Positions 10,640 through 30,693 of a stretch of 64,000 nucleotides of DNA are shown here, in pieces. Position 1 is the first letter of the stretch. Each line of letters starts with the position of its first letter. The notes under the pieces are model-generated. The model had not been told where the DNA came from, made no database searches, and saw only the letters and a list, made by a program, of their open reading frames with translations. The stretch is taken from the NCBI GenBank assembly GCA_964392925.1, contig CAYMRP010000004.1, positions 71,184 to 135,183 of the forward strand, in the 5' to 3' direction. This DNA comes from an uncultured Gammaproteobacteria bacterium. GTDB lineage: Bacteria; Patescibacteriota; Microgenomatia; Daviesbacterales; UBA10151. A program made the position numbers and the translations under genes.

Positions 10640-10641
10640 GT

Positions 10642-11343: not shown

Positions 11344-11417
11344 TTCAGCGAAGAAAATAAAGCCTCAACGCTTAATATATTGTCCGGTTTGCTAGTATAA
11401 TAAGTCAAGACTTCAAT

Positions 11418-12503: not shown

Positions 12504-12506
12504 TAA

Positions 12507-13439: not shown

Positions 13440-13528
13440 ATCTTACCCCACTTCTTCATACCCAAAATAAACTATGAGCTAGCTTTCAGGATTAGAGTAT
13501 GTTATTATAGGCCCTCATAATTTTCCCA

Positions 13529-16500
13529 ATGAATCTGGGAATAGATGTTATGGGTTTAAACATGAGCAATTTAGATATCATCATCCCGGTTAAAAACGAA
13601 GAAGGCAATATTCTTGCCTTAGTCCAGAGAATCAGTCAAGCAATGAAGCTTGGAAATCTTTCCTATAAAATGATTTTCATCGATGATAATTCAAGCGATA
13701 AAACTGTCTCCTCTCTAGAAATACTAAAAAAAATCTATCCAATTGAAATACATCCAAAAAAGGGCAAGCCAGGCAAAGCTTATTCAATAATTGAGGGAGT
13801 CGATTACGCAACCAGCGATAACATCGCCATGATCGATGCCGATCTTCAATACCCCCCAGAAGTTTTGCCTCAAATGCTCAAACAATTAGCAGATTCAGGG
13901 GTAGTAATCGCCCGCCGGAAAACAGCCCAGGGCTCAAAGTTGCGAAGATTCGTCAGTAAAGCTTTTACCAATGTATTTGGCGGCCTTCTTCACAACCTAA
14001 ACGTTGATGTTCAATCAGGACTCAAAGTCTTCAAAAAAGAAGTAATTGAAAAAATAGACCCCAAGAAAATAACACCTTGGACTTTAGACCTCTCACTGGT
14101 TTTAGTTGCCCGGGATTTAGGATTAGGCATTTCAGAAGTTGATATTGAATTTGATAAAAGAAAAAATGGTAATTCAAAAGTAAGTTTAGTCAGAACTTCA
14201 ATTGAAATCGGCAAAAACGCTTTAAAGCTTAAGTTCTTTAGAAAAAGACAATTCACTATTAAACCAACTAAAGAAAACTCCATGATCGGTGGAGGCATAA
14301 TACTTAAGGGTAAAAAATATATTACTCACACCACCTTAGAAGATAAGCATCTCGCTCTCAAAACATTTAGCACCACCCAAAAGTTCATTATTGGCTCACT
14401 AGTTACCGCTGCCATAGTTGGTTTAATCACAAATCCTCTTGCTGCAATTTTAACTATAGTCGCGATTCTCAGCGTAATTTATTTTATTGACGTTGTTTTT
14501 AATATTAGTGTTGTTCTGAAGAGTCTTCATTTTCCGCCAGAAATTAAAATACCCTCGGAAGACATCGAGGCTGTAGATGATAGTAAATTACCAACCTATA
14601 CAATTCTCTGTCCTCTCTATCGAGAAGCGGATGTATTGCCGCAGTTTTTGGAGTCTATCGAAAAACTTGATTGGCCTAAAAGTAAGCTTGATGTCATACT
14701 TTTACTTGAGGAAGATGATAAAGAGACTGTCGCTGAAATTAGTAAAAAAAGACTTCCATATTACGTCAGGGCTTTAATTACTCCCGACTCTCAGCCTAAA
14801 ACAAAGCCCAAGGCCTGTAACTACGGTTTAGCCCATGCTAACGGTGAATACCTAGTTATTTATGATGCCGAAGATCGACCTGATCCAGACCAATTAAAAA
14901 AGGCCTATCTCGGCTTTAAAAATTCCGGATCTAAAATTGTCTGCTTGCAGGCAAAATTGAACTATTTTAATCCTCACCAAAATTTACTCACCCGTTTCTT
15001 TACCGCTGAATATTCACTCTGGTTCGATGTTATGCTACCGGGACTCCAGTCTATTAATACTGTGATCCCTCTGGGCGGTACCTCAAATCACTTCAGAACC
15101 GCCACCTTAAGAGATCTCGAAGGATGGGATCCATTCAACGTCACAGAGGATTGTGACTTAGGAGTGAGAATCTTTAAAAAAGGCTGGTCAACAGCAATTA
15201 TCGATTCAATAACTCTAGAAGAAGCCAATTCAAATTGGGCTAATTGGATCAGGCAGCGTTCAAGATGGCTCAAAGGTTATATGCAAACCTACCTGGTTCA
15301 TATGCGTAATCCTTTCAGTTTTATTGCTCAAAACGGCTGGCACGCTTTTGTTTTTCAACTAATTATTGGTGCCCGTATCTCGTTCATGCTTATTAACCCG
15401 ATTCTTTGGTTAACGACTCTTTCCTATTTTGCTCTCTACGCCTATGTTGGTCCGGCAATTGAAGAGATTTTTCCTTCAGCAATATTCTATATGGCGGTCT
15501 TTTCTCTTTTAGTCGGTAACTTCTCATATATCTATAACTACATGATAGGTGCCTTAAAGCGCGAGCACTATTCGCTTATTAAGTTCATTTTCTTGATCCC
15601 AATCTATTGGCTGGTGGCATCCTACGCAGCTGGAGTGGCTGCTTATCAATTAATTGTTAAACCTCACTATTGGGAAAAAACTGTCCACGGTCTCCATATC
15701 AAAAAAATGACTATAGAGAGTATAAAAGAAGAAATACTGCCCACGCTTACTGCCGATTTAATTAAGCCCTCTGACGGAAGAATGTCATTCTACAAGAAGC
15801 TATCCTTACCAAAAGCTTTAATACCAAGTGCAATTTACACCTTAGCTACTTTTATCTCAGGGATTCTTAACCTAGGATTTAATGTCTTCTTAGGTAGAGT
15901 AATCAGCTTTGAGAACTTAGCGACCTTAAGTTTAGTAAGCAGTTTTTTGTATTTTTCTTCAGTGCCTCAGAACTCCTTACTAAGCACTATCACCCATAAA
16001 GTTGGTTATCTAGAAGGTAAAGGTAAGTTAACATCAGCACTTCATTTTTTTAAACAGGCAACAAATAGATCGCTTTTAATATCTTTTATTGCCTCGGCTG
16101 CATGGCTTTTTTCAATTCCCTTTCTAATGGATTATTTCCAATCAGATGATATATTTCCTTTTCTTCTCTTTACCCCTGTTTGGACACTTGGTACGGTTTT
16201 CGCTCTGATGAAGGGGTTTTTAGTAGGGAGATTAATGCTTGCCAGAGTAGGGTTTATTCTTTTTGCTGAAACTGTATTTAAATTTAGCATAGCGCTCATT
16301 TTTATATATTTTAATCTTTCCCACTGGGCATTTGTTGCTCTACCAGGATCGATTGTGCTCAGCGCAATTCTGATAATTCTTATCTCGGGAAAACTACTTA
16401 AAGTGCCAGAGAATGCTCCACAGTTAAAAAATGAATTTAGCTTTCCTCTTAAGTTCTATTCTGCTTCTGCCCTATCAATACTTGCACCCATTGCCTTTTT

Positions 16501-18274
16501 AAGTATGGATGTCCTCTTGGCTAAGCACTACTTAGCTCCCGTTGAAGCGGGTAAGTACGCCTTGCTTTCTGTCATTGGAAAAATCATTTTCTTTATGGGT
16601 GCATTAGCTAATCAGCTAGTGCTGCCTCTGGTTAGTCGAAATGAGGGCGCGGGTCGAAGTTCAGAAAAGTTTCTTGGCTGGGTATTTATTGGAACATTCT
16701 TAGTCACAAGTCTGGGCTTCATTTTCTGGGGTTTACTTGGAGGCTATACAGTACCTCTAGTTTTCGGAGAAAAAGCCAATGAAATAACACAATTCTTAGA
16801 AATATTCACTTTTACAATGATATGTTTCTCACTCTCAAGAGTATTAGTGTCTTATTTTCTGGCCAAAAAAGTTTACACCTTCCCTATTGTTTCATCTCTA
16901 ATTGTTATTCTCCAATTCGCTTTAATTTATTTTAATCATTCCGACTTAGGGTCAATAGTTTTTGATATGTTCTTGGTCGGAGTAATTGATTTACTTGCTA
17001 TGGCTATTCTTTATTTATTCTTGCCGTATGTAAAAATATTTGAAAATAATGTTAGCGATTTATTTGGATTATTTACCCGATCACTTCCTTTTAGTAAAGC
17101 TGAAGCTAACAAAAAAGTCCGAATTCTCATATTCAATTGGAGAGATATCAGCCATGTCTGGTCTGGTGGAGCAGAGAACTATATTCATGAATTAGCAAAA
17201 CTTTGGGTGGAACAGGGTTATCAGGTAACTATTTTTTCAGGTAACGATAACTTAAGTAAACGGTATGAAGTTTTAGACGGTGTACAAATAGTTAGAAGGG
17301 GTGGGTTCTATACAGTCTACTTCTGGGCAGTTTTATATTATATTTTCCGTTTCCGCGGTCTATATGATTTAGTTATAGATTCTGAAAACGGCATCCCTTT
17401 CTTTACGCCTCTATACGTTGGAAAAGCAAAGCTTTTATTAATTCATCATATCCACCAAGAAGTTTTCAGAAATCACCTTTCTTTGCCACTGGCAATTTTT
17501 GCATCATTCCTTGAAGGCAAACTTATGCCATTTATTTATAAAAATCAAAAAGTTATAACAGTTTCTGAATCTTCAAAGCAGGAAATCTTAAAACTGGGCA
17601 AGGATGTATTTGGTGCAATTGAAATTGTTAATCCTGGAATTCACACTCATAAATTCCTCACCCTAAAGAAAACAACAAATCCATCATTCTTATATCTCGG
17701 CCGACTGCAGCCTTACAAGAATATTGAAGTAGCAATTAAAGCATTCGCACAAGTTATTTCTAAATACCCTGATGCCACTTTAACAATTGCCGGTTTTGGT
17801 GAAAGTCTGATATCTCTTAAAAAACTAGCCGGCCAATTATCAATAGAAAAATCAGTTATTTTTACTGGCCGTGTCACTGATGAGAGGAAGTACGAGCTGT
17901 TATCAGAAAGCTGGGTTATGCTTCAGCCCTCAATGATTGAAGGCTGGGGGATCACTGTTATAGAAGCAAATGCGTCCGGAACTCCTGTAATCGCCTCAAA
18001 TGTTAACGGTCTTCGTGATTCAGTTGTCGATGGTAGAACCGGCATGTTAGTTAGACCAAAAGATGTTCAGATGTTTGCCCGGGTCATGACAGATCTTATT
18101 GAAAATAAAGAATTTAGAGATTACTTATCAGCTCAGGGAATTAAGTGGTCACAAAATTTTTCTTGGAAAAAACAGGCTGAAAAATATACTCACATTATAG
18201 AAGAGACCCTCTCTGATCATACCAAGAAAGGTATAAATTTAACAAAATCATGGAGTTTAAATTTTAGAAAGTAA
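13529..18274 (+). CDS. 1581-aa four-module glycan-assembly fusion: GtrB/DPM1-like GT2, processive synthase-like GT2 with TM bundle, MOP/Wzx-like flippase, and GT4
   Basis: It is a single uninterrupted ORF. Module signatures are listed in the four sub-features below. The start could instead be the ATG at 13562 (MSNLDIIIP). Confidence 0.85.
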   Translation: MNLGIDVMGLNMSNLDIIIPVKNEEGNILALVQRISQAMKLGNLSYKMIFIDDNSSDKTVSSLEILKKIYPIEIHPKKGKPGKAYSIIEGVDYATSDNIAMIDADLQYPPEVLPQMLKQLADSGVVIARRKTAQGSKLRRFVSKAFTNVFGGLLHNLNVDVQSGLKVFKKEVIEKIDPKKITPWTLDLSLVLVARDLGLGISEVDIEFDKRKNGNSKVSLVRTSIEIGKNALKLKFFRKRQFTIKPTKENSMIGGGIILKGKKYITHTTLEDKHLALKTFSTTQKFIIGSLVTAAIVGLITNPLAAILTIVAILSVIYFIDVVFNISVVLKSLHFPPEIKIPSEDIEAVDDSKLPTYTILCPLYREADVLPQFLESIEKLDWPKSKLDVILLLEEDDKETVAEISKKRLPYYVRALITPDSQPKTKPKACNYGLAHANGEYLVIYDAEDRPDPDQLKKAYLGFKNSGSKIVCLQAKLNYFNPHQNLLTRFFTAEYSLWFDVMLPGLQSINTVIPLGGTSNHFRTATLRDLEGWDPFNVTEDCDLGVRIFKKGWSTAIIDSITLEEANSNWANWIRQRSRWLKGYMQTYLVHMRNPFSFIAQNGWHAFVFQLIIGARISFMLINPILWLTTLSYFALYAYVGPAIEEIFPSAIFYMAVFSLLVGNFSYIYNYMIGALKREHYSLIKFIFLIPIYWLVASYAAGVAAYQLIVKPHYWEKTVHGLHIKKMTIESIKEEILPTLTADLIKPSDGRMSFYKKLSLPKALIPSAIYTLATFISGILNLGFNVFLGRVISFENLATLSLVSSFLYFSSVPQNSLLSTITHKVGYLEGKGKLTSALHFFKQATNRSLLISFIASAAWLFSIPFLMDYFQSDDIFPFLLFTPVWTLGTVFALMKGFLVGRLMLARVGFILFAETVFKFSIALIFIYFNLSHWAFVALPGSIVLSAILIILISGKLLKVPENAPQLKNEFSFPLKFYSASALSILAPIAFLSMDVLLAKHYLAPVEAGKYALLSVIGKIIFFMGALANQLVLPLVSRNEGAGRSSEKFLGWVFIGTFLVTSLGFIFWGLLGGYTVPLVFGEKANEITQFLEIFTFTMICFSLSRVLVSYFLAKKVYTFPIVSSLIVILQFALIYFNHSDLGSIVFDMFLVGVIDLLAMAILYLFLPYVKIFENNVSDLFGLFTRSLPFSKAEANKKVRILIFNWRDISHVWSGGAENYIHELAKLWVEQGYQVTIFSGNDNLSKRYEVLDGVQIVRRGGFYTVYFWAVLYYIFRFRGLYDLVIDSENGIPFFTPLYVGKAKLLLIHHIHQEVFRNHLSLPLAIFASFLEGKLMPFIYKNQKVITVSESSKQEILKLGKDVFGAIEIVNPGIHTHKFLTLKKTTNPSFLYLGRLQPYKNIEVAIKAFAQVISKYPDATLTIAGFGESLISLKKLAGQLSIEKSVIFTGRVTDERKYELLSESWVMLQPSMIEGWGITVIEANASGTPVIASNVNGLRDSVVDGRTGMLVRPKDVQMFARVMTDLIENKEFRDYLSAQGIKWSQNFSWKKQAEKYTHIIEETLSDHTKKGINLTKSWSLNFRK
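13562..14240 (+). other. Module 1: polyprenyl-phosphate glycosyltransferase-like GT2 (GtrB/ArnC/DPM1 type)
   Basis: Contains IIIPVKNEE, FIDDNSSDKT and IDADLQYPPE, the DADLQ.PP signature of this subfamily. Confidence 0.7.
14591..15670 (+). other. Module 2: synthase-type GT2 (D, DxD, TED, QxxRW) followed by about 4 TM helices
   Basis: Contains YTILCPLYRE, YDAEDRPDPDQL, VTEDCDLG and QRSRWLKG, followed by hydrophobic helices. Confidence 0.7.
15818..17040 (+). other. Module 3: polytopic MOP/Wzx-like polysaccharide-transporter module
   Basis: About 12 hydrophobic spans. The block MDVLLAKHYLAPVEAGKYALL parallels VDILLVKHYFSDFEAGTYALL in the separate flippase at 18840. Confidence 0.6.
17114..18210 (+). 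other. Module 4: GT4 (glycosyl transferase group 1)
   Basis: Contains WSGGAENY and the C-terminal EGWGITVIEANASGTPVIAS (E-x7-E region). Confidence 0.75.
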
Positions 18275-18276
18275 TT

Positions 18277-18840
18277 ATGGGAAAAACGATATCAATCATC
18301 TTACGAGTCTTTAAAAAAACACAAGCCAAAATATATACCAGATTTTGGAAACTATTTCTAAAATCCTTAGGGAAATACAGTGTTCTATATCCTGGGAGCA
18401 CCTTTGCCGGGGCATGTAATATCCAAATAGGTCATCACGTATTTATTCATCAGGGAGCACATTTATATACTGGCGGCAGCAAAATTACCATTGGGAACTA
18501 CGTACTCATTGGTAGAAACTGCTCAATTATCGCCGCCAACAGAGACTATGCGAATTGGACTCGGCCTATTTATTTTGGTACAGAATATGTGAAAAAACCT
18601 GTAGTTATAAAAGATGATGTTTGGATTGGTGAACGGGTAATTATTACCGCTGGTGTGACCGTTGGGCGAGGAGTTGTAATAGGTGCGGGTTCAATCGTAA
18701 CAAAAGATGTACCTGATTTCGCTATTGTTGCTGGTGTTCCTGCCAAGTTAATTAAATATCGATTTGATAAAAAAACTATTCAGCGAGCGATGCGGATAGA
18801 CTTGTCCAAATTCAAAGATATCAAAAAGGAGAAAAAATAA
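18277..18840 (+). CDS. Hexapeptide-repeat (LbH) O-acetyltransferase, WbbJ/maltose-acetyltransferase-like
   Basis: Shows the left-handed beta-helix repeats IGERVIITAGVTVGRGVVIGAGSIVTKDVP. Confidence 0.8.
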   Translation: MGKTISIILRVFKKTQAKIYTRFWKLFLKSLGKYSVLYPGSTFAGACNIQIGHHVFIHQGAHLYTGGSKITIGNYVLIGRNCSIIAANRDYANWTRPIYFGTEYVKKPVVIKDDVWIGERVIITAGVTVGRGVVIGAGSIVTKDVPDFAIVAGVPAKLIKYRFDKKTIQRAMRIDLSKFKDIKKEKK

Positions 18841-20198
18841 TGTCCGGAATAATTACTAGAATTTCTACTTTGGCTTCCAAAAACAAACTTATAACTACAG
18901 CTGGATTATTTGTGGCAGCCTCGATGTTGGCAAATATATTCAATTGGCTTTTAAGTATCCTAGCCGGCCGGGTTTTAGATACAGATGAATTTGCAGTCTA
19001 CGCTGTTTTTGTAAGCATATTAGGCATTCTGTCTGTTCCCTCAAACGCTTTAGCAACAACAATCAGCAGATACTATGCTTATTATTCGGGAAAAGAGAGC
19101 AGTTCAGATATTAAAGCTTTGATTAACTATTATAAAAAAGTAGCGCTGATTTTAGGAGTTCTTGGTGTCCTTATAGTCTATTTCACAAACGACTATATCA
19201 GAGCTTTTTTAAAGCTACCATCAGATAGCATGGTCGTTGGGTTTGCACCCGTTGCTTTCTTTCTTTTTACGGCGGCTTACTTCAGAGGAATTTTAAAAGG
19301 AAAACTAAAATTCGGCATAGTTGGACTGATGATGATAGTAGAAACATTTACTAAGCTGATACTTTTATTCTCCGGATACATGTTAAACCTTCCTGTTCTC
19401 GTAATAGCCATCATTTCCTTACCACTTTCTTGGTCGCTTGCATCTCTGATCGGGTTTTTAGCTACTTTTGAAAACGATGATAAGACTAGAATCACAAAGA
19501 AAACAGGAACCTTAGAATTTTCAAAATTAGATAGTCATTTTTTTATGACAAACGCTTTTTTTGCTAGTGTTGGTATGATGCTAATGAATAGTGTCGATAT
19601 TTTGCTAGTAAAACATTATTTTTCCGATTTTGAAGCTGGAACTTATGCTCTATTAAGCCTTTTCGGGAAAATTCTTTACTTTGGAGGTGGAAGCTTCATA
19701 GAATTATTTGTTCCACTCACCGCTAAGTCACATGCGAAAAATTCTAACAGTAGAAATCAATTTTTTAAACTTCTCGTATTGGTATCATCAGTAGCGATCC
19801 CCACACTAATTCTATTTCTTTCATTCCCAAACTTCACAACATACCTATTCTTAAAGGATAAAGGCTACCTAGTAATTCCGTATTTGGCACCTTATCTTAT
19901 TGCAACAACATTCCTGCTTTATACCAATTGTTTTAATGCATATAACACGGCTAAAAAACATTTCATCTCGACATACCTGATAACTGCGATGGCATTAGTC
20001 CAGGGAGCTTTGATTATGATATGGCACAAATCGCTTACTGATATTGTAAACATTGTTCTTTTCACTCAAGTTGTACTTTTTGTACTAGTTCTGTTTTATG
20101 AATTTTTTATATCTCCAAAACACTCTGAAGAAAAATCAACTTCGTCACTATGGACAAAATGGTCTCCAATTTGGGAAAGGACTAACAACAATGTCTAA
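18840..20198 (+). CDS. MOP/Wzx-family polysaccharide flippase
   Basis: About 12 TM spans. The start ATG overlaps the preceding TAA (TAATG). Confidence 0.65.
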   Translation: MSGIITRISTLASKNKLITTAGLFVAASMLANIFNWLLSILAGRVLDTDEFAVYAVFVSILGILSVPSNALATTISRYYAYYSGKESSSDIKALINYYKKVALILGVLGVLIVYFTNDYIRAFLKLPSDSMVVGFAPVAFFLFTAAYFRGILKGKLKFGIVGLMMIVETFTKLILLFSGYMLNLPVLVIAIISLPLSWSLASLIGFLATFENDDKTRITKKTGTLEFSKLDSHFFMTNAFFASVGMMLMNSVDILLVKHYFSDFEAGTYALLSLFGKILYFGGGSFIELFVPLTAKSHAKNSNSRNQFFKLLVLVSSVAIPTLILFLSFPNFTTYLFLKDKGYLVIPYLAPYLIATTFLLYTNCFNAYNTAKKHFISTYLITAMALVQGALIMIWHKSLTDIVNIVLFTQVVLFVLVLFYEFFISPKHSEEKSTSSLWTKWSPIWERTNNNV

Positions 20199-21195
20199 AA
20201 CTTTATTAGTACAACAGCAACAGCTCCACTTTTTCTTGGTGATGCTTATGTCGTTATTCAGAAAAAAACAAACAGCCATCTCGCCTCTCCCAGCTTTAGT
20301 AAATGGCTTCGCTCTAGAGAGGGAGCTAAATTCAGGTGAGTTAATAAAGCCTCACAGAATAGGAATATACAAAAATGATCGCGGACAAAAAGGTGTAGTT
20401 AAATGGTGGAGTGGAAACAAAAAAACATTTGCAGCTATATCATTAGAGAATGAACTTTCAATGGCCAAATTATTAGAGAAATTAAACCATCGGACAATTA
20501 AAAATCAAAAACCAAATTTGACTCAAATTGGAAGTGCACATGTTATCACAAGTAGAGTAAATGAAAAAACAGTTTTTATAATGTCTGAATTTCATGAGGG
20601 AAAACTTCTTAGAGAAGTAGCAAAGGCGATCCAGATTAAAGAGTATAAACGGGCACTAAACTATTTAAGTAGTCTATCTGGCAATTTAACCCAAATTGAA
20701 ATTGACGCGCTTCCCAAGAGAACATATATTGATTACCTATTGCTTTACCCAGCTTTGTTAAGTGTCTCTATTCTAAGACAACCGAGATATTTTTGGACAT
20801 TTATAAAAGGCCTGCCCCCAGTACTTTTCTCACTTACAAAAATTAGAAAACATCCTTTAACCATAGTGCATCGAGATCTTCACACAATGAATATTATCTA
20901 TTCTCCATCTCGCACAACCATCATCGATCTACAGCGTGCTGTTCTAACTTACGGGTTATATGAGCTGGTAACAACTTTAGCAGTTGAATGGGACAACAAG
21001 GAATTACGTCAGGCGATTCTAGATTATATTTACTCATCATATTCGAATTCTTTAACTATCTTTAGAGGACTAATGATTTATTTTGCAACTCATGCTCTGA
21101 CTGCCAATAACTTGCCGGAGTATTATCTTAGCCGCTACAAAGCAATGCTTAACTTCGCGGTCTATAAATATTCCAACTATTATTTAAAAACATGA
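20191..21195 (+). CDS. Protein-kinase-like-fold phosphotransferase (APH / LPS-kinase-like)
   Basis: Contains IVHRDLHTMNIIY (HRDLHxxN catalytic loop) followed by IIDLQRA. The start is set at the ATG at 20191, which overlaps the flippase stop by 8 nt; the track start at 20098 lies inside the flippase gene. Confidence 0.55.
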   Translation: MSKTLLVQQQQLHFFLVMLMSLFRKKQTAISPLPALVNGFALERELNSGELIKPHRIGIYKNDRGQKGVVKWWSGNKKTFAAISLENELSMAKLLEKLNHRTIKNQKPNLTQIGSAHVITSRVNEKTVFIMSEFHEGKLLREVAKAIQIKEYKRALNYLSSLSGNLTQIEIDALPKRTYIDYLLLYPALLSVSILRQPRYFWTFIKGLPPVLFSLTKIRKHPLTIVHRDLHTMNIIYSPSRTTIIDLQRAVLTYGLYELVTTLAVEWDNKELRQAILDYIYSSYSNSLTIFRGLMIYFATHALTANNLPEYYLSRYKAMLNFAVYKYSNYYLKT

Positions 21196-22097
21196 AAACA
21201 AAAAAAACATTAACTATTTGTATACCCGCATTTAATGAGGCAGAAAATCTAAAAAAACTGCTTCCATCCCTACTCGCTCAAAAAAGGTCAACTTACATTC
21301 TTTCTAAAATAATAGTAGCCTCTGATGCAAGCACTGACACTATATATAATGTGGTAAAGAAAATAGGAAGCAAAAAAATAAATGTTATACATGGAAAGGA
21401 GAGAAAAGGTGTCGCTTATCGTCAAAATCAATTATTAGAAAAATCGACCTCTGATATTGTAGTTCTTCTTAATGCTGACATCGCTGTTATCGATTTCAGA
21501 TATATTGAGAAATTAGTTGCTCCAATTATAAAAAATAAAGCCGATATGACTTCATCAGCTCTCATGGAAACAAGTCCCCGCACTTTTTTCGAAAAAGCCC
21601 TATATACCAGCATGCAAGCAAAAAAATATGCTTTCAATAAATTCAAAGACGGAAATAATGTCTATACCTGTCGCGGACCTGCAAGAGCTTTTAGTAAAAA
21701 TCTCTATAAAATAATTCGTTTCCCTTCTGGTATCGGGGAGGATGCATACTCCTACCTTTTTACAATCAAACGAGGCATGCGATTTATCGCTGTTAAAAAC
21801 GCTACAGTCTACTATTCCTTGCCCACAACCTTTAAAGATCACAAAAGACAAAGCCTGCGTTACCTGAGTTCTAAATCAAATTTTACTTCCAAATTTGGCG
21901 AAAAGTTTGTCAAAGATGAATACAACCTTCCCCTAAAATATATATTGGAAGCAGCTCTGTTCTACTCAATGTCGAATCCTATCTATATGCTTTGCTACTT
22001 CATGATCTTCATGCAAATAAATCTTAGATCTCTATTCAAAAACACCCAGAGTGAAACATGGGAGGTGGCAACAAGTTCAAAGTTGCTAAATGTATAA
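21192..22097 (+). CDS. GT2 glycosyltransferase
   Basis: Contains ICIPAFNEAENL, ASDASTD and LNADI. The start forms an ATGA overlap with the upstream stop. Confidence 0.75.
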   Translation: MKTKKTLTICIPAFNEAENLKKLLPSLLAQKRSTYILSKIIVASDASTDTIYNVVKKIGSKKINVIHGKERKGVAYRQNQLLEKSTSDIVVLLNADIAVIDFRYIEKLVAPIIKNKADMTSSALMETSPRTFFEKALYTSMQAKKYAFNKFKDGNNVYTCRGPARAFSKNLYKIIRFPSGIGEDAYSYLFTIKRGMRFIAVKNATVYYSLPTTFKDHKRQSLRYLSSKSNFTSKFGEKFVKDEYNLPLKYILEAALFYSMSNPIYMLCYFMIFMQINLRSLFKNTQSETWEVATSSKLLNV

Positions 22098-22905
22098 AAT
22101 GAAAACCAATCCAATATTTATCATTCGCCGTTATATATACAAAACTCTAAATCTGGTCGATCGCCTTTTTGACAACAATACTAAAGCATTTGTTCTTTGC
22201 TATCACGGAATTGACTCCAGTGACTGGAGGTTTAGTATTTCGCTTATCATGTTCAAAAAACAAATTAAGCATCTGAAAAATGAAGGCTACTCTTTCATAA
22301 CAACTAAAGACATATTGGAATATTGCCAAGGTAAAAAAATTCTACCTAAGCCTAGTGTTGCAATAACTTTCGATGATGGATACAAAAGCATGAAAATAGT
22401 CGCTAAATTTCTCAAAGAAGAAAAAATTGAACCAACCCTATTCCTCCTCTCTCAAACAGTAAAACCTAACTGGAAAGAAATTGGTAAAAAGGACAGTTTC
22501 TTAAATTTCTCTGAGATAAAATCCTTGGAAAGAAATGGCTGGTTAATGGGAAGTCACAGCAGCACACATGCTAACCTTTCAGAGCTATCAAAAGAAGAGT
22601 TGGTAAATGAAATCTCAAATTCTAAAAAAGTGTTAGAACAAAAGCTTAAGAAATCTATTTCAGATTTTGCATACCCAAGAGGTAAATACAATGATTCCGT
22701 ACTAAAGCAAGTAAAAAAAGCTGGATTTAAAGCGGGTTGGACTATGGACGATGGATTTTTGGGTCCACAAACAAACTTACTTCAAATACCCAGAATAGGA
22801 GTTGACAGAACCCATTCCTTAGAAGAGTTTAAAACGCTATTCAGCCCATCGGCAATATTAATGCGAAAACTTATAAAACAATCTCCCATAGGAGGATTAC
22901 TATGA
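22090..22905 (+). CDS. Polysaccharide deacetylase (NodB / CE4)
   Basis: Contains ITFDDGY and GSHSSTH, corresponding to motifs 1 and 2 of NodB domains. Confidence 0.8.
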   Translation: MYKMKTNPIFIIRRYIYKTLNLVDRLFDNNTKAFVLCYHGIDSSDWRFSISLIMFKKQIKHLKNEGYSFITTKDILEYCQGKKILPKPSVAITFDDGYKSMKIVAKFLKEEKIEPTLFLLSQTVKPNWKEIGKKDSFLNFSEIKSLERNGWLMGSHSSTHANLSELSKEELVNEISNSKKVLEQKLKKSISDFAYPRGKYNDSVLKQVKKAGFKAGWTMDDGFLGPQTNLLQIPRIGVDRTHSLEEFKTLFSPSAILMRKLIKQSPIGGLL

Positions 22906-24074
22906 AAAGTAAACAAATTGATGTTGTAGTGAAATATTTTCACCCTGTTGCGGCGGGTATAGAAACTAACATACTTAATACATATAGTGTGCTTGCCCAA
23001 ATGGGTTGGGATGTTCGTATTCACACATCTACAAACACTCACACGGGTAAGGACATACTTCCAAAATTCGAAATAATCAGAGGCTTAAAAGTATATCGCT
23101 ATAAACATCATTGGTATGGAATACAGCCTAATATAGACTATACGAAAACTTCTTTAGTTTGTATCCATAATTTTAATATCTTTCCTCATATTCAAATAAT
23201 GACTAAAGCGATACTGGGTAACCTAACGAAAACAAAGAAGTACGGGCTGGTCTTGACCCCTCACGGGGGTTACACTCCTGATTGGAACGTTTTTGGACCA
23301 ATATCAAAACAAATTAAGAAAATCTATCACAGAACCCTAGGTAAAATTCTTATTAATTTATCTTGTGATGCAATAAGAGCAGTCTCAGTATGGGAGAAAG
23401 ACCAAATAATTAGCCAGGGAGTTAATAAAGATATTATTCAAGTTATAACAAATGGGGTAGAGAATGAAGCATTTGTAGATTTAAATAAAGAAGCAAGTAA
23501 ACAGGTCAAGAATCTCGCTCACTCATTAGGCGACTATATAATCCAGGTTGGAAGAATATACCCAATTAAAAACTACGAAACGACAATTCGAGCTCTTAGT
23601 CTGATCCCAGGTAACCTAAAATATGCTATTACTGGAGCAGATTCAGAGAAATCCGGTTATTTTAATTCCCTCAAAAAATTAATTAAATCGTTGGGGCTTG
23701 AAGAAAGAGTTGTCTTCACGGGAGTCATTTCCGGGGTCGATAAATTCTATCTCATGAATAAAGCCCAGATGATGGTCCATATGGCACATTGGGAGAGTTT
23801 TTGTAATGTGGTTCACGAAGGAATGAGCCAAGGATTAGTCTGTATCGTGGCCAACAATACTGCACTTCCATATCTAATAAAAAATAATGTGAACGGATAC
23901 TGTGTTGAAACTTTTGACTATAAATCTTTAGCAAGCAAGATTGAATATGTCATAAAAAACAAAAACAAGAAAGAAATTATTCAAATCGAAAAGAATAATA
24001 AAAATATTGGTTCTCAGGAAACTTGGGGTGCAGTTGCTGAAAAAATGAATAACTTGTATCTAAAGCTAATATGA
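22902..24074 (+). CDS. GT4 glycosyltransferase
   Basis: Has the GT-B pattern with C-terminal ESFCNVVHEGMSQGLVCI (E-x7-E). The start overlaps the upstream stop (ATGA). Confidence 0.7.
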   Translation: MKSKQIDVVVKYFHPVAAGIETNILNTYSVLAQMGWDVRIHTSTNTHTGKDILPKFEIIRGLKVYRYKHHWYGIQPNIDYTKTSLVCIHNFNIFPHIQIMTKAILGNLTKTKKYGLVLTPHGGYTPDWNVFGPISKQIKKIYHRTLGKILINLSCDAIRAVSVWEKDQIISQGVNKDIIQVITNGVENEAFVDLNKEASKQVKNLAHSLGDYIIQVGRIYPIKNYETTIRALSLIPGNLKYAITGADSEKSGYFNSLKKLIKSLGLEERVVFTGVISGVDKFYLMNKAQMMVHMAHWESFCNVVHEGMSQGLVCIVANNTALPYLIKNNVNGYCVETFDYKSLASKIEYVIKNKNKKEIIQIEKNNKNIGSQETWGAVAEKMNNLYLKLI

Positions 24075-24964
24075 AAAAGAAATTAAAAATATCAATCGCT
24101 ATACCTACTTACGAAGCCGGAGAAAGTCTTGTTGTCACACTCCGCTCTATCTACAATCAAACTTTTTATTCGGAAATAGATAAAATTTATGTGGCTATAG
24201 ATGGTAATAAGATAAAAAGCAAAATCATGAATAAAATAAAAAATCCAAAGCTGAGTCTACTTCACTATAAAAGAAGAGAAGGCCAAGCCCAAAGAATTAA
24301 TAATTTATTCAAAAAATCGAGTTCTGACATTTTGGTATTAACCAACGATGATATCTACTTAACCAATACCTTAGTCGAGGAAATTGTCCGCACTTATAAT
24401 GGTGACCTGATATTAGGAAATGTCCTAGGTATCAAGCCTCAGACATTCATTGAGAGACTCGTCTTGGTAGGAGCAAATATTAATAAAAGAGTCGCAGAAT
24501 CCTGGAATTCAGGCGACAATTATCTTTCCTGCAACGGCAGACTGATCATACTTTCTAAAAAATTATATAAAAGAATAGAGCTGCCGAAAACAATTTGGAA
24601 TAGTGATGCTTATATTTATTTCTATGCAAAAAAACTTAAATCTGAAGTTAATATCGGCAAAGAACTAAAAGCATATTTCAGAGCTCCTAGCAATCTTGAA
24701 GAGCATATTAAGCAGAGTGATAAGTTTCAAATGTCTCGGGAGGAAAATATGTCTTATTTTAAAGAGGATATATCTAAACAATACGACATACCTAAAGCTC
24801 TAAAATTTAAATCCCTCATTCTTGAATTCCTATTAAACCCAGTGATTACTTTTTGCTACGTACTTATTTATATCTATACAAGAACCCATAGAAAATACTA
24901 TAATATACAACATAAGGATTTTTGGGAAACTGATAAAACAACTAAGCAATTGAAAATATCATGA
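24071..24964 (+). CDS. GT2 glycosyltransferase
   Basis: Contains ISIAIPTYEAGESL, AIDGN and TNDDI. The start overlaps the upstream stop (ATGA). Confidence 0.7.
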   Translation: MKKKLKISIAIPTYEAGESLVVTLRSIYNQTFYSEIDKIYVAIDGNKIKSKIMNKIKNPKLSLLHYKRREGQAQRINNLFKKSSSDILVLTNDDIYLTNTLVEEIVRTYNGDLILGNVLGIKPQTFIERLVLVGANINKRVAESWNSGDNYLSCNGRLIILSKKLYKRIELPKTIWNSDAYIYFYAKKLKSEVNIGKELKAYFRAPSNLEEHIKQSDKFQMSREENMSYFKEDISKQYDIPKALKFKSLILEFLLNPVITFCYVLIYIYTRTHRKYYNIQHKDFWETDKTTKQLKIS

Positions 24965-26511
24965 AAAAAATAATTACTTCAATACTATTAATAATCTTCA
25001 GTTTCGTAATTCTAACTCTTTCTATAAGGGGCATAGCTGGTAATCCTAGTGATGCTACCATTAACGAACCGTACTGGAAAGATAATGGTCCTTTAGAGCT
25101 CTCACCTGAAAGAGGTAAATTTGCTCTGACATATTCCTTCGTTGAGGATAATTCTGTTCATTTCTCGGTTCCAATAGCAAAATTCTCGACACCCGACTTA
25201 GGTTATAGTAAAGGTAATTATGTCTCACTTTTTGCACCAGGCGTAGCCTATATAACAATACCAGGATATATTATAGGTAAGGAATTTGGCTCTTCGCAAG
25301 TTGGCACTTATGCTGTAATAGCATTATTCGCGATAATGAACGCAGCCTTAATAAATTTAATCCTCCTAAGGCTTGGTGTAAGGAGTATTTTATCTGCTAT
25401 AAGTAGTATCATTTTTCTATTCGCGACACCGGCTTTCGCATATGCCGTATCTCTATATCAGCATCATATATCCACATTTATAATACTTCTAAGTGTATAT
25501 CTGCTGCAAAGATTTAAAGGAATTTGGCCACTGGTAATTATATGGTTTATCTTAGCCATATCTTTAGCAGTAGATAATCCAAATCTTTTTATGGTTTTCC
25601 CGATCGGGATATATGCATTAGGGCGAGTAGTTTACGCAAAAATTGATCAGAACAAGGTTAAGGTAGGAGTGAAGACATTAGCAGTTCTGACTTTAGTCAC
25701 TGCTTTAGTCCCTCTTTTACTTTTCGGGTGGTTCAACAAAATATCTTATGGCGACGCTATGAGACTTGGAGGTACTGTGGCATCGGTTAAAGAAATAGAT
25801 GAACAAGGTAAGCCAGCTGCTCCAAAAAATACAGGAACAACTAATGTTGCCCAGTTTATCAATCCTGATCAGCAAAAAAAGTCAGCTCTCAGATTCTTTA
25901 AGACCAGAAATATATTAAACGGCTTTTATATTCATTTTATTAGTCCTGACAGAGGCATTATATATTTTACACCGGTCATACTATTGGGTTTCATTGGAAT
26001 GTTTTATTTTTACAGGAAAGATTCGGGATTAACGTCTCTTCTTATTGCAATCATGGGAACAAATATCCTGCTGTATTCTATGTGGGGTGATGCATGGGGA
26101 GGATGGGCGTTTGGTTCGAGATATTTAGTACCTTCTTATGCAATACTCGCCATTTTCCTTGGTGTCGCCCTAAACAGGTTCCATCGGAATATTATATTTA
26201 TACTTGTGTTCTTATCTCTTTTTGTATATTCGGCAGCTATAAATACCGTAGGTGCTATTACTTCCAATAGAAATCCTCCTCAGGTTGAAGTTTTGGGTCT
26301 GGAGCAGCTAACAGGCAAACAAGAAAAATACACTTATGAAAGAAATTTTGACATGCTAGGCATTAATCAATCTAAATCTTTTGTATTTAATACTACAGTT
26401 AACAAATATTTCACTGCATGGGAATACTACTATTTCCTGACGGGGCTAATTATTCTCTCAGTGGCATTGCCATTAATTACACTTAACGCACTAGACTGGA
26501 GAAGAAAATGA
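24961..26511 (+). CDS. Polytopic membrane protein, GT-C-like (ArnT/PMT/YfhO-type) candidate
   Basis: More than 10 TM spans and a first-loop acidic pair (VEDN). The size and topology resemble lipid-linked-sugar transferases. The call rests on topology only. Confidence 0.4.
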   Translation: MKKIITSILLIIFSFVILTLSIRGIAGNPSDATINEPYWKDNGPLELSPERGKFALTYSFVEDNSVHFSVPIAKFSTPDLGYSKGNYVSLFAPGVAYITIPGYIIGKEFGSSQVGTYAVIALFAIMNAALINLILLRLGVRSILSAISSIIFLFATPAFAYAVSLYQHHISTFIILLSVYLLQRFKGIWPLVIIWFILAISLAVDNPNLFMVFPIGIYALGRVVYAKIDQNKVKVGVKTLAVLTLVTALVPLLLFGWFNKISYGDAMRLGGTVASVKEIDEQGKPAAPKNTGTTNVAQFINPDQQKKSALRFFKTRNILNGFYIHFISPDRGIIYFTPVILLGFIGMFYFYRKDSGLTSLLIAIMGTNILLYSMWGDAWGGWAFGSRYLVPSYAILAIFLGVALNRFHRNIIFILVFLSLFVYSAAINTVGAITSNRNPPQVEVLGLEQLTGKQEKYTYERNFDMLGINQSKSFVFNTTVNKYFTAWEYYYFLTGLIILSVALPLITLNALDWRRK

Positions 26512-28166
26512 TAAAAATAAATAAGTTAGCTGAAATAGAAATAGAGCTTAATGTCTCTTTACTAGACAAAATTAAAGATTTTTTCTCTAAGTATGGACTC
26601 TACTTCATAATTTTAATACTTTCAGGCATTTCCGTAGGCGGATTTCTATACTTTCTTGAAAACGGATTAGGGCTCGCATACAACGATGCCAGATCCCATT
26701 TAAATATTGGCCGAAGAGTAGTAGAAGGGTTAAAGCCAGGTTTCGCCCAAATTGGTAGTGTCTGGTTACCTCTACCTCACGTTCTAATGATTCCTACAAT
26801 CTGGAATGATTTTATGTGGCACACAGGTTTATCCGGTGCAATTGTCTCGATGTCCTCCTTTATTGGAACAGGTGTATTAGTCTATAAGTTCCTTCAAAAA
26901 CTAGGAGCAGGATTAATGGGTAGATGGATGGGAGTTCTTGTGCTGGTAGCAAACATTAATATTCTATATTTGCAATCTACCGCAATGACTGAACTATTAT
27001 TACTTTTCACAATGACCGCCGCAGCCTACGACCTAATGATCTGGCACCAATCAAGCAGAATTATTAATCTGGTTAAAGCCGCATTTTGGATAATGTTATC
27101 AACTCTCGTCAGATATGATGGTTGGTTCCTATTTTTCGTATCAGTTATTCTTATAGTCATTAATCTTATGCGGGTGGGTAGTTTTAAAATAAAGGATCTC
27201 CCTGCTAAATATTTCAAAATAGAGGGAGTCGTCATTGCTTTCTGTACGTTAGCAGGTCTTGGAGTTTTTCTATGGTTACTATGGAACCTATTAATTTTTA
27301 AAGATCCGTTTTTCTTTGCCTTTGGCCCATACTCAGCTCATGCCCAGCAACAGCAATTAGAAAGTGCGGGGGAGTTAATTACCAAACATGATTGGTTTCT
27401 TTCAGCTAAGTTTTATACATATGCTCTAGCCTATAATTCCGGAGCTTTCTCAGCACTTCTTGGGATATTTGGGTTAGTAGCTATTTGGTTCGATAAGAAG
27501 CTATTAACACCGGTAAAATTTGCAGTGTTTGCTTTAGTTGCACCACTTTTATTCAATATATTAGCATTATACCTTGGGCATTCAGTTCTATTTATCCAAG
27601 GACTTTCTGGTGATGTCTGGTTCAATGTCCGATACGGCATTATGATGATGCCATCAATAGCAATCTTTATTGGTTTTCTTATCGATAGGGTTAAGAATCT
27701 TAGAGCAGTCCTTATCGGGCTTTTACTACTTACGATTTTCTTCCAGTTCCAAAACTTTGATGCAGTTACTATTGATGATGCCAGAGTTGGATCTTCTCAG
27801 AAAAATGTCAGCGAAGTATCAGATTGGCTATCTCAAAATGCTAAAGATAGGGATGGGTTCATTTTAATCTCAGCAGCCTCACACGACGCTATTATTTTTT
27901 CATCTGGATTACCAATGAAAAAATTTATCCATGAAGGTACCGGCAGATATTGGGAATCCGCAACAACAAATCCTGAAAGATGGGCAAGATGGATTATTGC
28001 CAGAACTCATGACAATAACGATTCTACGTGGAGAGCTGTATCGCAAACTCCAGATATTAATAACTATATTCTTGTTAAGTCTTACCCGTTTGCAGATATC
28101 TACGAACTAAAGCCAGAGTTCCTCCCTAACCTCAATACAAAACCTATCTTAGGCAAGCAAAAGTAG
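26508..28166 (+). CDS. Polytopic membrane protein, GT-C-like (ArnT/PMT family) candidate with a C-terminal soluble domain
   Basis: Has the first-loop block AYNDARSHLNIGRRV, about 11 TM spans and a ~150-aa periplasmic-type tail. The call rests on topology and motif only. Confidence 0.4.
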   Translation: MIKINKLAEIEIELNVSLLDKIKDFFSKYGLYFIILILSGISVGGFLYFLENGLGLAYNDARSHLNIGRRVVEGLKPGFAQIGSVWLPLPHVLMIPTIWNDFMWHTGLSGAIVSMSSFIGTGVLVYKFLQKLGAGLMGRWMGVLVLVANINILYLQSTAMTELLLLFTMTAAAYDLMIWHQSSRIINLVKAAFWIMLSTLVRYDGWFLFFVSVILIVINLMRVGSFKIKDLPAKYFKIEGVVIAFCTLAGLGVFLWLLWNLLIFKDPFFFAFGPYSAHAQQQQLESAGELITKHDWFLSAKFYTYALAYNSGAFSALLGIFGLVAIWFDKKLLTPVKFAVFALVAPLLFNILALYLGHSVLFIQGLSGDVWFNVRYGIMMMPSIAIFIGFLIDRVKNLRAVLIGLLLLTIFFQFQNFDAVTIDDARVGSSQKNVSEVSDWLSQNAKDRDGFILISAASHDAIIFSSGLPMKKFIHEGTGRYWESATTNPERWARWIIARTHDNNDSTWRAVSQTPDINNYILVKSYPFADIYELKPEFLPNLNTKPILGKQK

Positions 28167-28175
28167 TATTCTAAT

Positions 28176-29186
28176 ATGATCAAAAAAGTATTAATAGTCT
28201 CAGCTATAACAATAGTCATATTCTTGTTATTCTCCTACTTCAACTCAAAAATTGAAGAATATCATAAAGAATCTGCTCTAAAAAGAATTCATCTGTGGGA
28301 TTTTCGTTCGGTTGATACTGTAAAATATTCAAGAGATCTCGCACGCGAAATGATGGAGGATCAAGAATTCGATACCATTATTAGTAAACAAGTTAGTGAC
28401 ATAGCATTGCTAGGAGCTTCACATATTGCCATAAGTACTCCATACGATGCCGAATTCCTACCTTTCCTGAAAAGATGGGTTACCGTTGCAAGAGAGAAGA
28501 ATCTTAAAGTCTGGTTTAGAGGTAATTTTTCAGGCTGGGAAAATTGGTTTGGCTACGAAAGAATGACCAGAGAAGAACATAAAATATTACTCAAAGAGTT
28601 TATTGAAAATAATCCTGGTCTATTTGAAGATGGAGACATTTTTACCTCATGTCCTGAATGCGAGAACGGTGGACCAGGGGACCCGAGGCATAATGGTGAT
28701 GTAATAGGACATCGTAAATTCCTAATTGATGAATACAATATTTCTAAAGAATCATTTGCCAATATTGATAAGCAAGTTCAGCCTGGTTTTTATTCTATGA
28801 ATTATGATGTCGCAACTCTAGTTATGGATGAGGATACAACAAATAAGCTCGGAAACTTAGTAGTTATTGATCATTACATCAAAGATCCTGAAAAACTTGC
28901 CAAAGACGCAAGAAAGATAGCTGAGAAATCAAAAGGTGAAGTTGTTCTGGGTGAATTTGGTGCACCGATTCCTGACATACATGGAGCAATGACAGATAAG
29001 GCACAGGCTGACTGGATTAACCAAGCTTTGCAAGAAGTGAGTCTTGTTGAAGAAGTAACTGGTGTAAATTACTGGACTAATGTTGGAGGTTCTACCGAAT
29101 TGTGGAATTCAGGAGGTACTCCCAAAGCAGCTGTAGATATGATAAGAGAATATTATAAAAAAACAAAACTAATATCTCCACGTTGA
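28176..29186 (+). CDS. Anchored TIM-barrel glycoside-hydrolase-like protein (clan GH-A-like)
   Basis: Has an N-terminal anchor and VVLGEFGAP, which resembles a GH5-type nucleophile strand. The acid/base motif is not clear. Confidence 0.3.
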   Translation: MIKKVLIVSAITIVIFLLFSYFNSKIEEYHKESALKRIHLWDFRSVDTVKYSRDLAREMMEDQEFDTIISKQVSDIALLGASHIAISTPYDAEFLPFLKRWVTVAREKNLKVWFRGNFSGWENWFGYERMTREEHKILLKEFIENNPGLFEDGDIFTSCPECENGGPGDPRHNGDVIGHRKFLIDEYNISKESFANIDKQVQPGFYSMNYDVATLVMDEDTTNKLGNLVVIDHYIKDPEKLAKDARKIAEKSKGEVVLGEFGAPIPDIHGAMTDKAQADWINQALQEVSLVEEVTGVNYWTNVGGSTELWNSGGTPKAAVDMIREYYKKTKLISPR

Positions 29187-29218
29187 TTTAAACCCATAGT
29201 CGTGATACAATAACCCAT

Positions 29219-29244
29219 AATGTTTTTTATTATGATAAAAAACA
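29219..29244. repeat. Perfect 11-bp inverted repeat ATGTTTTTTAT-N4-ATAAAAAACAT between the glycan locus and the sortase-substrate gene
   Basis: Read directly from the sequence. It is an AT-only hairpin, so it could be a weak terminator or an operator. Confidence 0.6.
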
Positions 29245-29266
29245 TGCGAAATTTTTAATAAAACTT

Positions 29267-29905: not shown

Positions 29906-29906
29906 A

Positions 29907-30485: not shown

Positions 30486-30507
30486 TTAGTCCTGTTAGAA
30501 TAGCTCT

Positions 30508-30678: not shown

Positions 30679-30693
30679 CTGTGACTGGTCCGC

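Follow-up and report, generated by a model that had tools for sequence, protein, structure and literature searches.

In synthase-dependent polysaccharide systems such as Bcs and Pga, a glycosyltransferase family 2 (GT2) synthase is normally paired with a glycoside hydrolase (GH). Three-component systems, namely GtrA/GtrB/GtrV, CsbB-GtcA-YfhO of lipoteichoic acid (LTA) and ArnC-ArnE/F-ArnT, each combine a polyprenol-phosphate sugar synthase of GT2 with a flippase step and with a glycosyltransferase of the GT-C fold that has an acidic residue in its first outer loop. To our knowledge, every characterised GT-C enzyme uses a lipid-phosphate-linked donor, and there is hardly any experimental knowledge of the envelope of Microgenomates-type bacteria of the candidate phyla radiation (CPR). 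Here we describe a locus of eleven + strand genes (g1 to g11, positions 13529-29186) in a stretch of 64,000 nucleotides from contig CAYMRP010000004.1 (assembly GCA_964392925.1; the whole stretch is called the window below). It resembles the three-component systems in each of these parts and holds a BcsA-like synthase in addition. The reading that we favour, tentatively and at somewhat less than an even chance, is that the locus is a conserved operon of Microgenomates-type CPR bacteria that makes a cell-envelope glycan by a hybrid route, in which a synthase would work together with extracytoplasmic, lipid-donor-dependent GT-C steps.

The eleven genes were confirmed from the open reading frame (ORF) list of the window and are separated, from g1 to g11, by 2, -1, -8, -4, -8, -4, -4, -4, -4 and 9 nt. 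These junctions comprise a 2-nt gap 3' of g1, TAATG at 18840, 8-nt overlaps at 20191 and 22090, ATGA overlaps at 21192, 22902, 24071, 24961 and 26508, and a 9-nt gap 5' of g11. Inside the locus 10 of 10 junctions are 9 nt or shorter, compared with 8 of the 40 other same-strand neighbour pairs of the window; a run of ten is therefore far beyond chance, and the tight operon-like packing of 13529-29186 is real. A promoter and terminator scan of 12400-31800 returned sites that were fewer, or no more numerous, than in shuffled controls and does not define the ends of the operon. An earlier note on this DNA had described eleven coupled + strand genes with these overlaps and gaps, and we recovered the same coordinates and junction sequences. 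The gene contents that it proposed agree with Pfam and NCBIfam scans, apart from the GH-like label of 28176-29186, which draws on weak and indirect similarity.

The first gene, g1 (13529-18274, + strand), encodes a protein of 1581 aa with four modules, g1a to g1d. At least eight other genomes encode it in one piece, as an ORF of 1528-1601 aa, and a few have it split over two genes; the long ORFs elsewhere led us to reject an assembly artefact as its origin. The N-terminal module g1a (13529-14398, +; residues 1-290) is a predicted GT2 polyprenol-phosphate sugar synthase of the GtrB, dolichol-phosphate mannose synthase (DPMS) and ArnC type. Among solved structures it matches such synthases only (Pyrococcus DPMS 5mlz 3.6e-19, GtrB 5ekp 6.4e-16, ArnC 2.7e-12), and its NCBIfam matches, PgfS and ArnC, score under the equivalog cut-offs. 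It combines the features that mark this group, a GT-A domain with DxD, homology to solved members and membrane helices after the domain, the latter seen by hydropathy as hydrophobic segments at about aa 286-330. Its motif DADLQYPPE is present in 10 of 12 orthologs.

The second module, g1b (14399-15748, +; residues ~291-740), is a membrane-embedded GT2 synthase domain of the BcsA/PgaC type that is probably processive. It falls in Pfam Glyco_trans_2_3, its nearest NCBIfam models are PgaC_IcaA (5.5e-23) and CelA (2.6e-22), and a profile of 19 orthologs matches E. coli BcsA in the PDB at 2.8e-20 over 300 residues. The D, D, D, QxxRW signature of BcsA and PgaC lies in a GT-A domain flanked by transmembrane (TM) helices (at about 306-324 and 608-701 by hydropathy), and DAED, TEDCD and QRSRW are invariant in all 20 orthologs aligned. 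Similarity to PgaC and CelA does not reach equivalog level, and the Pfam output holds no PilZ (cyclic di-GMP) domain. The third module, g1c (15749-17098, +; residues about 741-1190), is polytopic, with about 10-12 hydrophobic segments and a weak MatE match at 9e-5; a sequence search of the PDB found nothing. Because it is paralogous to g3 (24% identity over 408 aa, E 1e-20), which passes Pfam Polysacc_synt, we take it to be a flippase-like module of the MOP superfamily (Wzx/PST-type). The C-terminal module g1d (17099-18274, +; residues about 1191-1581) is a GT4 domain of the GT-B fold, with Pfam matches to Glycos_transf_1 (2.6e-42) and Glyco_transf_4; MshA and BshA are its nearest NCBIfam models, both below cut-off.

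The last third of the operon encodes two large polytopic proteins, g9 (24961-26511, +; 516 aa) and g10 (26508-28166, +; 552 aa, with a C-terminal extracytoplasmic domain). Their homologs are abundant in Davies-, Woese-, Levy- and Roizmanbacteria and relatives and are always labelled 'hypothetical'; the g9 family has no Pfam model. Direct searches with g9, g10 and g11 (Pfam at E<=10, NCBIfam, and the PDB by phmmer and profile) returned only a weak NCBIfam match of g9 to LA_3751/LA_3752 putative glycosyltransferase (2e-9), and neither g9 nor g10 matches YfhO or PMT models in sequence. Alignments of 58 sequences each were then given to AlphaFold2, and the models were compared with the PDB by Foldseek. 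For g9, modelled at a pLDDT of 92.6, the top 18 matches are GT-C enzymes throughout and include ArnT, EmbA, ALG3, Pmt4, STT3, AftB, AftA, ALG9 and Pmt1/2. The model of g10 matches STT3, Pmt4, EmbA and AglB, with STT3B also among its top structural matches, and the structural matches of g9/g10 further include AftD, PimE, glycosylphosphatidylinositol (GPI) mannosyltransferase I and PIG-U. In each set of 58 sequences an Asp in the loop after TM1 is invariant (D79 in g9, D60 in g10; topology from hydropathy and the positive-inside rule). Going by these models, g9 and g10 are both GT-C fold enzymes, as the earlier note had suspected. Wzy, ligase and transporter folds are missing from the significant fold matches of both, and Pfam and NCBIfam give no signature of Wzy_C or O-antigen ligase, so that a Wzy or ligase identity was rejected.

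Within the GT-C fold the two proteins show no detectable paralogy (hhalign probability of 3% between their profiles). Membership of g10 in STT3 was also rejected, the WWDYG motif (W[WYF]D[YFW]G) being present in 0 of 58 family members. The window protein g10 has no PMT_2 (PF13231) match at E<=10; among eight distant relatives, which score E 1e-90 to 1e-140 against the g10 profile, seven pass the 26.1-bit cut-off of that model with 27-35 bits. By analogy with characterised GT-C enzymes, and with a GtrB-like donor synthase in the same operon, g9 and g10 would use lipid-phosphate-linked donors. The orthologs of g9 fall into two identity classes relative to the window protein, about 30-35% and 44-54%, and in two loci (L062, L083) g9 is present twice; the family may comprise two subfamilies that differ in specificity.

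Fusions show which of these domains travel together. A g10 profile search of 1.84 billion representatives found 2676 relatives, and architectures were read from the best 150. Eleven of these representatives are g1b+g10 fusions, in which g1b keeps DAED, TED and QxxRW at 45-52% identity. The other architectures are g1a+g1b+g10 (2), a weak g1a+g10 (1), g10+g11 (4), g9+g10, g10+GH5 and g1b+g10+GH113, the last in the Ktedonobacteraceae protein MBA2286223.1 (P0455), of which a longer variant (P0511, 1475 aa) lies in the same 90% cluster. The commonest fusion partner of g10 is thus g1b rather than the GtrB-like domain, and in the four g10+g11 representatives g11 takes the slot filled by GH5 or GH113 in other fusions. 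Recurrent fusions of this kind suggest that a synthase-like GT2, the g10 GT-C and a domain of the GH-A type form a recurrent functional unit. One non-CPR locus (L087 8380-15097, GCA_037025105.1) is a minimal form of this unit and holds, in this order, a GH5 cellulase, a g1b+g10 fusion of 1231 aa and a GtrA_DPMS_TM+GT2 fusion; in three others (L089, L090, L091) the g1b+g10 fusion stands alone, in two of the three beside Ser/Thr kinase genes. The link of the unit to a GtrB-like donor synthase is therefore frequent but not constant.

In a collection with one genome per species, 402 stretches encode a relative of g10. The window proteins were compared by BLAST with the ORFs of the best 80 of these loci, all from Microgenomates-type CPR genomes; denominators are the genomes with enough sequence. 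The gene directly upstream of g10 is g9 in 72 of 72 genomes, g11 follows g10 in 66 of 69, and part of g1 lies within 10 kb upstream of g10 in 42 of 50. The middle genes are found less regularly (g6 in 26, g4 in 20, g7 in 17 and g2 in 7 of 50 related loci, stand-alone g3 in none of 50). Best conserved are g1b and g10, with median identities of 65% and 63%, followed by g11 (54%), g1d (52%), g9 (45%) and g1c (33%); across the 80 species-level genomes g10 and the synthase domain thus stay at about 63-65%, compared with about 42% for the neighbouring sortase described below. As judged from gene content, the cassette is a fixed core (g1, g9, g10, g11) around a serotype-like variable middle across Microgenomates-type genomes. 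Third-party annotation (TPA) metagenome-assembled genomes (L009, L015, L017, L020, L040 and many more) carry the cassette at 60-66% identity despite other taxon labels, among them 'uncultured Gammaproteobacteria', 'Bdellovibrionales', 'Pseudomonadales' and 'Bathyarchaeia', and these labels are probably wrong.

In the window the variable middle comprises seven genes. The first, g2 (18277-18840, +), encodes a putative left-handed beta-helix acetyltransferase (WcaF/LacA-like; Pfam Hexapep, NCBIfam WcaF family) and is a variable accessory gene. It is followed by g3 (18840-20198, +), a stand-alone Wzx-like MOP flippase that reaches 34.8 bits with Pfam Polysacc_synt against a cut-off of 28.2 bits; with no stand-alone counterpart in the 50 related loci, it looks like a lineage-specific duplication of g1c. 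The accessory gene g4 (20191-21195, +) encodes an APH-type kinase-fold protein (Pfam APH 8e-8); the ORF list starts it at 20098, and the probable start at 20191 gives the 8-nt overlap with g3. A second kinase of this family (APH_6_hur) lies about 26 kb 3' of g4, at 47257-48102 of the window. Then come g5 (21192-22097, +), a GT2 with a cytoplasmic catalytic domain (Glycos_transf_2 1.6e-23), of which related loci hold one to five Glycos_transf_2 genes each, and g6 (22090-22905, +), a polysaccharide deacetylase of carbohydrate esterase family 4 (CE4; Polysacc_deac_1 1.3e-25) without signal peptide or TM segment. NCBIfam relates g6 to PgaB and IcaB at ~1e-23, with about 82 bits against cut-offs of 248-322. 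The middle ends with g7 (22902-24074, +), a GT4 (Glycos_transf_1 1.4e-27; NCBIfam Agl16 at 4e-54, below cut-off), and g8 (24071-24964, +), a GT2 with one C-terminal hydrophobic segment (Glycos_transf_2 1.5e-10).

A hydrophobic N-terminus is absent from g6 and from 30 of 30 orthologs, and g6 is probably cytoplasmic, with a NodB-like placement. The same absence in g2, g4 and their orthologs suggests that the deacetylase, kinase and acetyltransferase steps all take place in the cytoplasm. In other genomes, methyltransferases, PIG-L/FemAB-like genes or nucleotide-sugar genes occur in or beside the cassette. One Daviesbacteria locus (L001 5546-8438) carries in its middle a PIG-L deacetylase fused to a FemAB-like Acetyltransf_6 domain plus a second Acetyltransf_6 gene, which suggests de-N-acetylation followed by aminoacylation or acylation of the glycan.

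The operon ends with g11 (28176-29186, +), a membrane-anchored extracytoplasmic protein and a candidate clan GH-A-like hydrolase or transglycosylase. An N-terminal hydrophobic anchor is present in 70 of 74 orthologs, and the conserved motifs are RGN, CPECENGG, DHY and LGEFG, with an invariant LGEFG-type Glu260, plus E161 and E163. The window protein has no Pfam match, and 6 of 60 members match Glyco_hydro_cc weakly (best 0.0016). A profile search of the PDB found nothing, and hhalign comparisons with a GH5 domain (P0370) and a GH113 domain (P0455) gave non-significant probabilities of 3% or less.

The functional unit reaches further downstream, to a surface protein and its sortase (29267-30485). 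The first of the pair, g12 (29267-29905, +), encodes a secreted protein of 212 aa that has four conserved Cys residues, a linker rich in Ser, Gly and Asn and, at its C-terminus, LASTG followed by a TM segment and a basic (KRR) tail; the second, g13 (29907-30485, +), starts 1 nt past g12 and encodes a membrane-anchored sortase (Pfam Sortase 4.6e-19). LAxTG is the motif recognised by class E sortases. It is present together with the TM segment and basic tail in 47 of 49 orthologs, and g12 is, by these features, a predicted sortase substrate. Within 6.5 kb downstream of g10, g12 is found in 41 of 57 genomes; a sortase lies near g10 in 37 of 57, and the pair follows g10 within a few kb in 36-41 of 57, about two thirds. 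In one genome (L057) g12 and g13 read as one ORF of 413 aa. We regard g12 as a candidate glycan acceptor or partner.

Put together, these parts suggest the following hybrid route. The BcsA-like module g1b would polymerise and export a beta-linked backbone, and polyprenol phosphate would be charged with sugars by the GtrB-like g1a. These lipid-linked sugars may be lengthened by the GT4 and GT2 enzymes and tailored by the CE4 deacetylase, the beta-helix acetyltransferase and the kinase. The resulting polyprenol-monophosphate donors would be built without a phosphoglycosyl priming transferase, as in Haloferax Agl (PMC3871713), and flipped by the MOP modules. Outside the membrane g10, which is physically coupled to the synthase, and g9 would transfer the donors onto the emerging polymer, which g11, as a GH-A-like enzyme, would trim or transglycosylate. 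The route would yield a wall-associated glycopolymer that varies between strains and is made in the part of the envelope in which the sortase anchors the co-encoded LAxTG protein. In other phyla the BcsA-like g1b is the domain to which the GT-C is recurrently fused, and the locus probably produces a polymer besides decorating one. The earlier note had proposed decoration of a surface polymer or of proteins rather than classical O-antigen or capsule synthesis; a classical pathway is indeed unlikely, but decoration alone overlooks g1b with its DAED, TED and QRSRW motifs. It had also seen no WecA- or WbaP-type priming transferase and no Wzy or Wzz, and this stands: the window ORFs that were scanned, and the gene tables of the syntenic genomes L001, L003, L005 and L006, showed no priming transferase (WecA/MraY PF00953, WbaP PF02397), Wzy, Wzz or ABC exporter. 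It had likewise seen no nucleotide-sugar synthesis genes; in other genomes such genes do flank the cassette.

Several points weigh against this route. The scores of g1b are far from the equivalog cut-offs (81.6 against 422 bits for PgaC_IcaA, 78.7 against 699 for CelA), and GT2s of the QxxRW type also include lipid glycosyltransferases such as lipid glucosyltransferases, so that the processivity of g1b is a matter of inference. Wzx-type flippases usually move diphosphate-linked oligosaccharides, not monophosphate-linked sugars. The model of g10 has a pLDDT of 73, with low confidence in the most conserved loops, and the assignment of g11 as a GH is provisional. In three of the four non-CPR contexts no GtrB-like gene lies within 4-6 kb of the g1b+g10 fusion, and these lone fusions fit a supply of the g10 substrate by g1b itself at least as well.

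The last point leads to an alternative that we hold to be unlikely, in which g1b builds a glycan on a membrane lipid (polyprenol phosphate or a phospholipid) and an STT3/PMT-like g10 uses this product as donor, either for en bloc transfer to a wall, lipid or protein acceptor or for polymerisation of oligomers, with g11 trimming. It would account for the fusions: g10 is joined mostly to g1b (eleven g1b+g10 fusions and two that also contain g1a, compared with one weak g1a+g10), and in three of the four non-CPR contexts the fusion has no GtrB-like gene nearby. GT-C enzymes need lipid-linked donors, AglB and STT3B are among the top structural matches of g10, and the C-terminal outer domain of g10 is like theirs. 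However, WWDYG is missing in 58 of 58 g10 members, and the distant relatives of g10 belong to PMT_2, in which the enzymes characterised so far transfer one sugar each. Transfer of a lipid-linked polymer from a BcsA-like synthase to a GT-C enzyme is not known, and in Microgenomates the GtrB-like domain sits in the same polypeptide as g1b.

The LAxTG protein and sortase, which follow the cassette in 36-41 of 57 genomes, raise protein glycosylation as another explanation, resembling S. mutans Pgf, streptococcal GtrB/PgtC2 or Haloferax Agl. A glycan on polyprenol monophosphate would be primed by the GtrB-like domain, as AglJ does, flipped by MOP modules, and attached or extended by the two GT-C enzymes on Ser/Thr/Asn-rich linkers, with g12 as the first target. 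In Pgf, one GT-A and two GT-C enzymes act on adhesins anchored to the cell wall, and disordered regions rich in Ser/Thr are glycosylated by GtrB together with a GT-C enzyme (bioRxiv 10.1101/2024.05.05.592596); the Haloferax N-glycan is built on dolichol monophosphate without a phosphoglycosyl transferase (PMC3871713). In the locus g1a matches NCBIfam PgfS, g7 resembles Agl16, and the g12 linker is Ser/Thr/Gly/Asn-rich in many orthologs, including that of the window, although many other linkers are short or acidic and not Ser/Thr-rich. We nevertheless give this explanation a low probability: it leaves no role for the best-conserved BcsA-like synthase, the GH-like partner or the GH5/GH113 fusions, the LAxTG gene is not nearby in about a third of the genomes, and g10 belongs to neither the STT3 nor the PMT family by motif or Pfam.

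Quite improbable, in our view, is a lipoglycan of the type of phosphatidylinositol mannosides, lipomannan and lipoarabinomannan (PIM/LM/LAM) or of GPI. Here GT4 and GT2 enzymes would glycosylate a lipid of the inner face, the deacetylase would expose an amine, and the flipped glycolipid would be extended by the GT-C enzymes with polyprenol-phosphate sugars; that this glycolipid might in addition act as the nucleophile with which the sortase joins g12 is purely speculative. The list of parts does mirror PIM/LM and GPI synthesis, with a GT4 (near MshA and BshA), a DPMS-like GT2, a cytoplasmic deacetylase (CE4, or PIG-L in L001) and GT-C enzymes, and the structural matches include PimE, GPI mannosyltransferase I and PIG-U. 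Lipid glucosyltransferases are known among QxxRW-type GT2s; the nearest solved relatives of g1b are nonetheless BcsA, not lipid glycosyltransferases, the GH5 and GH113 fusions suggest a polymer of beta-1,4 type, and no lipid-specific domain was found. A classical Wzx/Wzy- or ABC-dependent O-antigen or capsule cluster with its priming transferase and polymerase elsewhere would suit the Wzx-like flippase, the several GT2/GT4 enzymes, the acetyltransferase and the serotype-locus-like middle, but is very improbable with both polytopic proteins GT-C rather than Wzy or ligase and with PF00953, PF02397, Wzy, Wzz and ABC exporters all missing from the scanned ORFs of the window and from the four syntenic loci.

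Returning to the hybrid route of synthase and GT-C enzymes, a bolder form of it, which we regard as possible rather than probable, is that it represents an undescribed assembly mode. A BcsA-like processive synthase would be physically coupled, by fusion or in the same operon, to a GT-C and a GH-A-like enzyme, and the polymer, while it is being extruded, would be branched or passed on at the outer side of the membrane with lipid-phosphate donors. In Microgenomates-type bacteria the product would be the main secondary wall polymer, with strain-specific side chains made on polyprenol monophosphate without a priming transferase, and it would be spatially coupled to a sortase-anchored protein. If true, this coupling would be a fourth logic beside the textbook Wzy-, ABC- and synthase-dependent pathways. 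The cassette is among the best-conserved envelope loci of Microgenomates-type bacteria, and the GT-C assignment of the 'hypothetical' proteins g9 and g10 offers a concrete route to the surface glycan shown to hosts, phages and the environment. Single-gene fusions of synthase, GT-C and hydrolase, for example MBA2286223.1, could reveal what a synthase-coupled GT-C does. We found no description of the cassette in the literature on Patescibacteria/Microgenomates/CPR glycosyltransferases, cellulose synthase or sortase, and a CPR pilus preprint mentions sortase in passing only. All folds of the locus are known superfamilies; in the literature covered, the four-module mega-enzyme, the two GT-C families without Pfam model and the repeated coupling of synthase, GT-C and hydrolase appear undescribed.

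The surroundings of the operon also hold genes of the cell wall. Directly upstream (9965-13439 of the window) are peptidoglycan-remodelling genes, encoding a VanW-domain protein, a YkuD L,D-transpeptidase (- strand), a weak DUF1565/beta-helix protein and an S11 D-Ala-D-Ala carboxypeptidase, which indicate a cell-envelope neighbourhood. Further downstream a soluble inorganic pyrophosphatase adjoins a membrane H+-pyrophosphatase (40927-43632), and at 48558-50599 a class I lysyl-tRNA synthetase (tRNA-synt_1f), an enzyme class known mainly from archaea and a minority of bacteria, comes after a tRNA-Glu(CTC) on the - strand. An ORF of 501 aa without Pfam match (51850-53358, - strand) lies in those 2 kb of the window that have the highest GC content and the strongest GC skew (GC 0.467 compared with about 0.38).

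Compared with described systems, the locus shares parts with several. The likeness to three-component systems that the earlier note had drawn is borne out by the GtrB-like g1a, two MOP flippase modules and GT-C enzymes; no gene of the locus matches the GtrA flippase family PF04138, MOP/Wzx-type modules occurring instead, and it is thus not a canonical Gtr system. Unlike those systems, it has its polyprenol-phosphate sugar synthase joined to a BcsA-like synthase and a GT4 in one protein of 1581 aa, and it adds two unrelated GT-C families without Pfam models, a GH-like partner and many cytoplasmic glycosyltransferases. With BcsA/BcsZ, PgaC/PgaB and IcaA/IcaB it shares a membrane-embedded GT2 with D, D, D, QxxRW, a CE4 gene (as in Pga and Ica) and a hydrolase-like partner (GH5 and GH113 in fused relatives). 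It departs from them in that the synthase is repeatedly fused to a GT-C and that the CE4 enzyme is apparently cytoplasmic, not extracytoplasmic as in poly-N-acetylglucosamine (PNAG) systems; BcsB, PgaD and IcaD were not identified in the locus, although none was specifically searched for. A Pga/Ica PNAG operon was rejected on account of the scores of g1b and g6, far below the cut-offs, and the cytoplasmic CE4. The S. mutans Pgf system (PgfS, PgfM1, PgfE, PgfM2) and GtrB/PgtC2 resemble the locus in having one GT-A lipid-sugar synthase and two GT-C enzymes, and the locus adjoins a sortase substrate; Pgf has no processive synthase, GH partner, MOP flippase fusion or large set of cytoplasmic glycosyltransferases.

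The Agl pathway of Haloferax volcanii (AglJ/G/I/E, AglD, AglR, AglS, AglB) has in common with the locus a Wzx-like flippase and, on the route proposed here, an assembly on polyprenol monophosphate without a priming transferase; in it one GT-C enzyme draws its sugar from a separate lipid-phosphate donor, and the last step falls to an STT3-type GT-C enzyme whose C-terminal domain lies outside (PMC3871713). The locus differs in that g10, without WWDYG, is no AglB/STT3 ortholog, that the host is a bacterium with peptidoglycan genes, and that Agl has no counterpart of the BcsA-like module. The mycobacterial systems for PIM/LM/LAM and arabinogalactan (Ppm1, PimA/B, PimE, MptA/B, Emb/Aft) differ in turn, given that by sequence neither g9 nor g10 belongs to a family of the GT87, GT53 or GT85 type and that the locus has no inositol or decaprenyl-arabinose genes and contains a BcsA-like synthase and a GH-like partner. 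They share with the proposed route the succession of a cytoplasmic GT4 phase and an extracytoplasmic GT-C phase that a DPMS-like GT2 supplies, and Emb, AftA, AftB, AftD and PimE are found among the structural matches of g9/g10.

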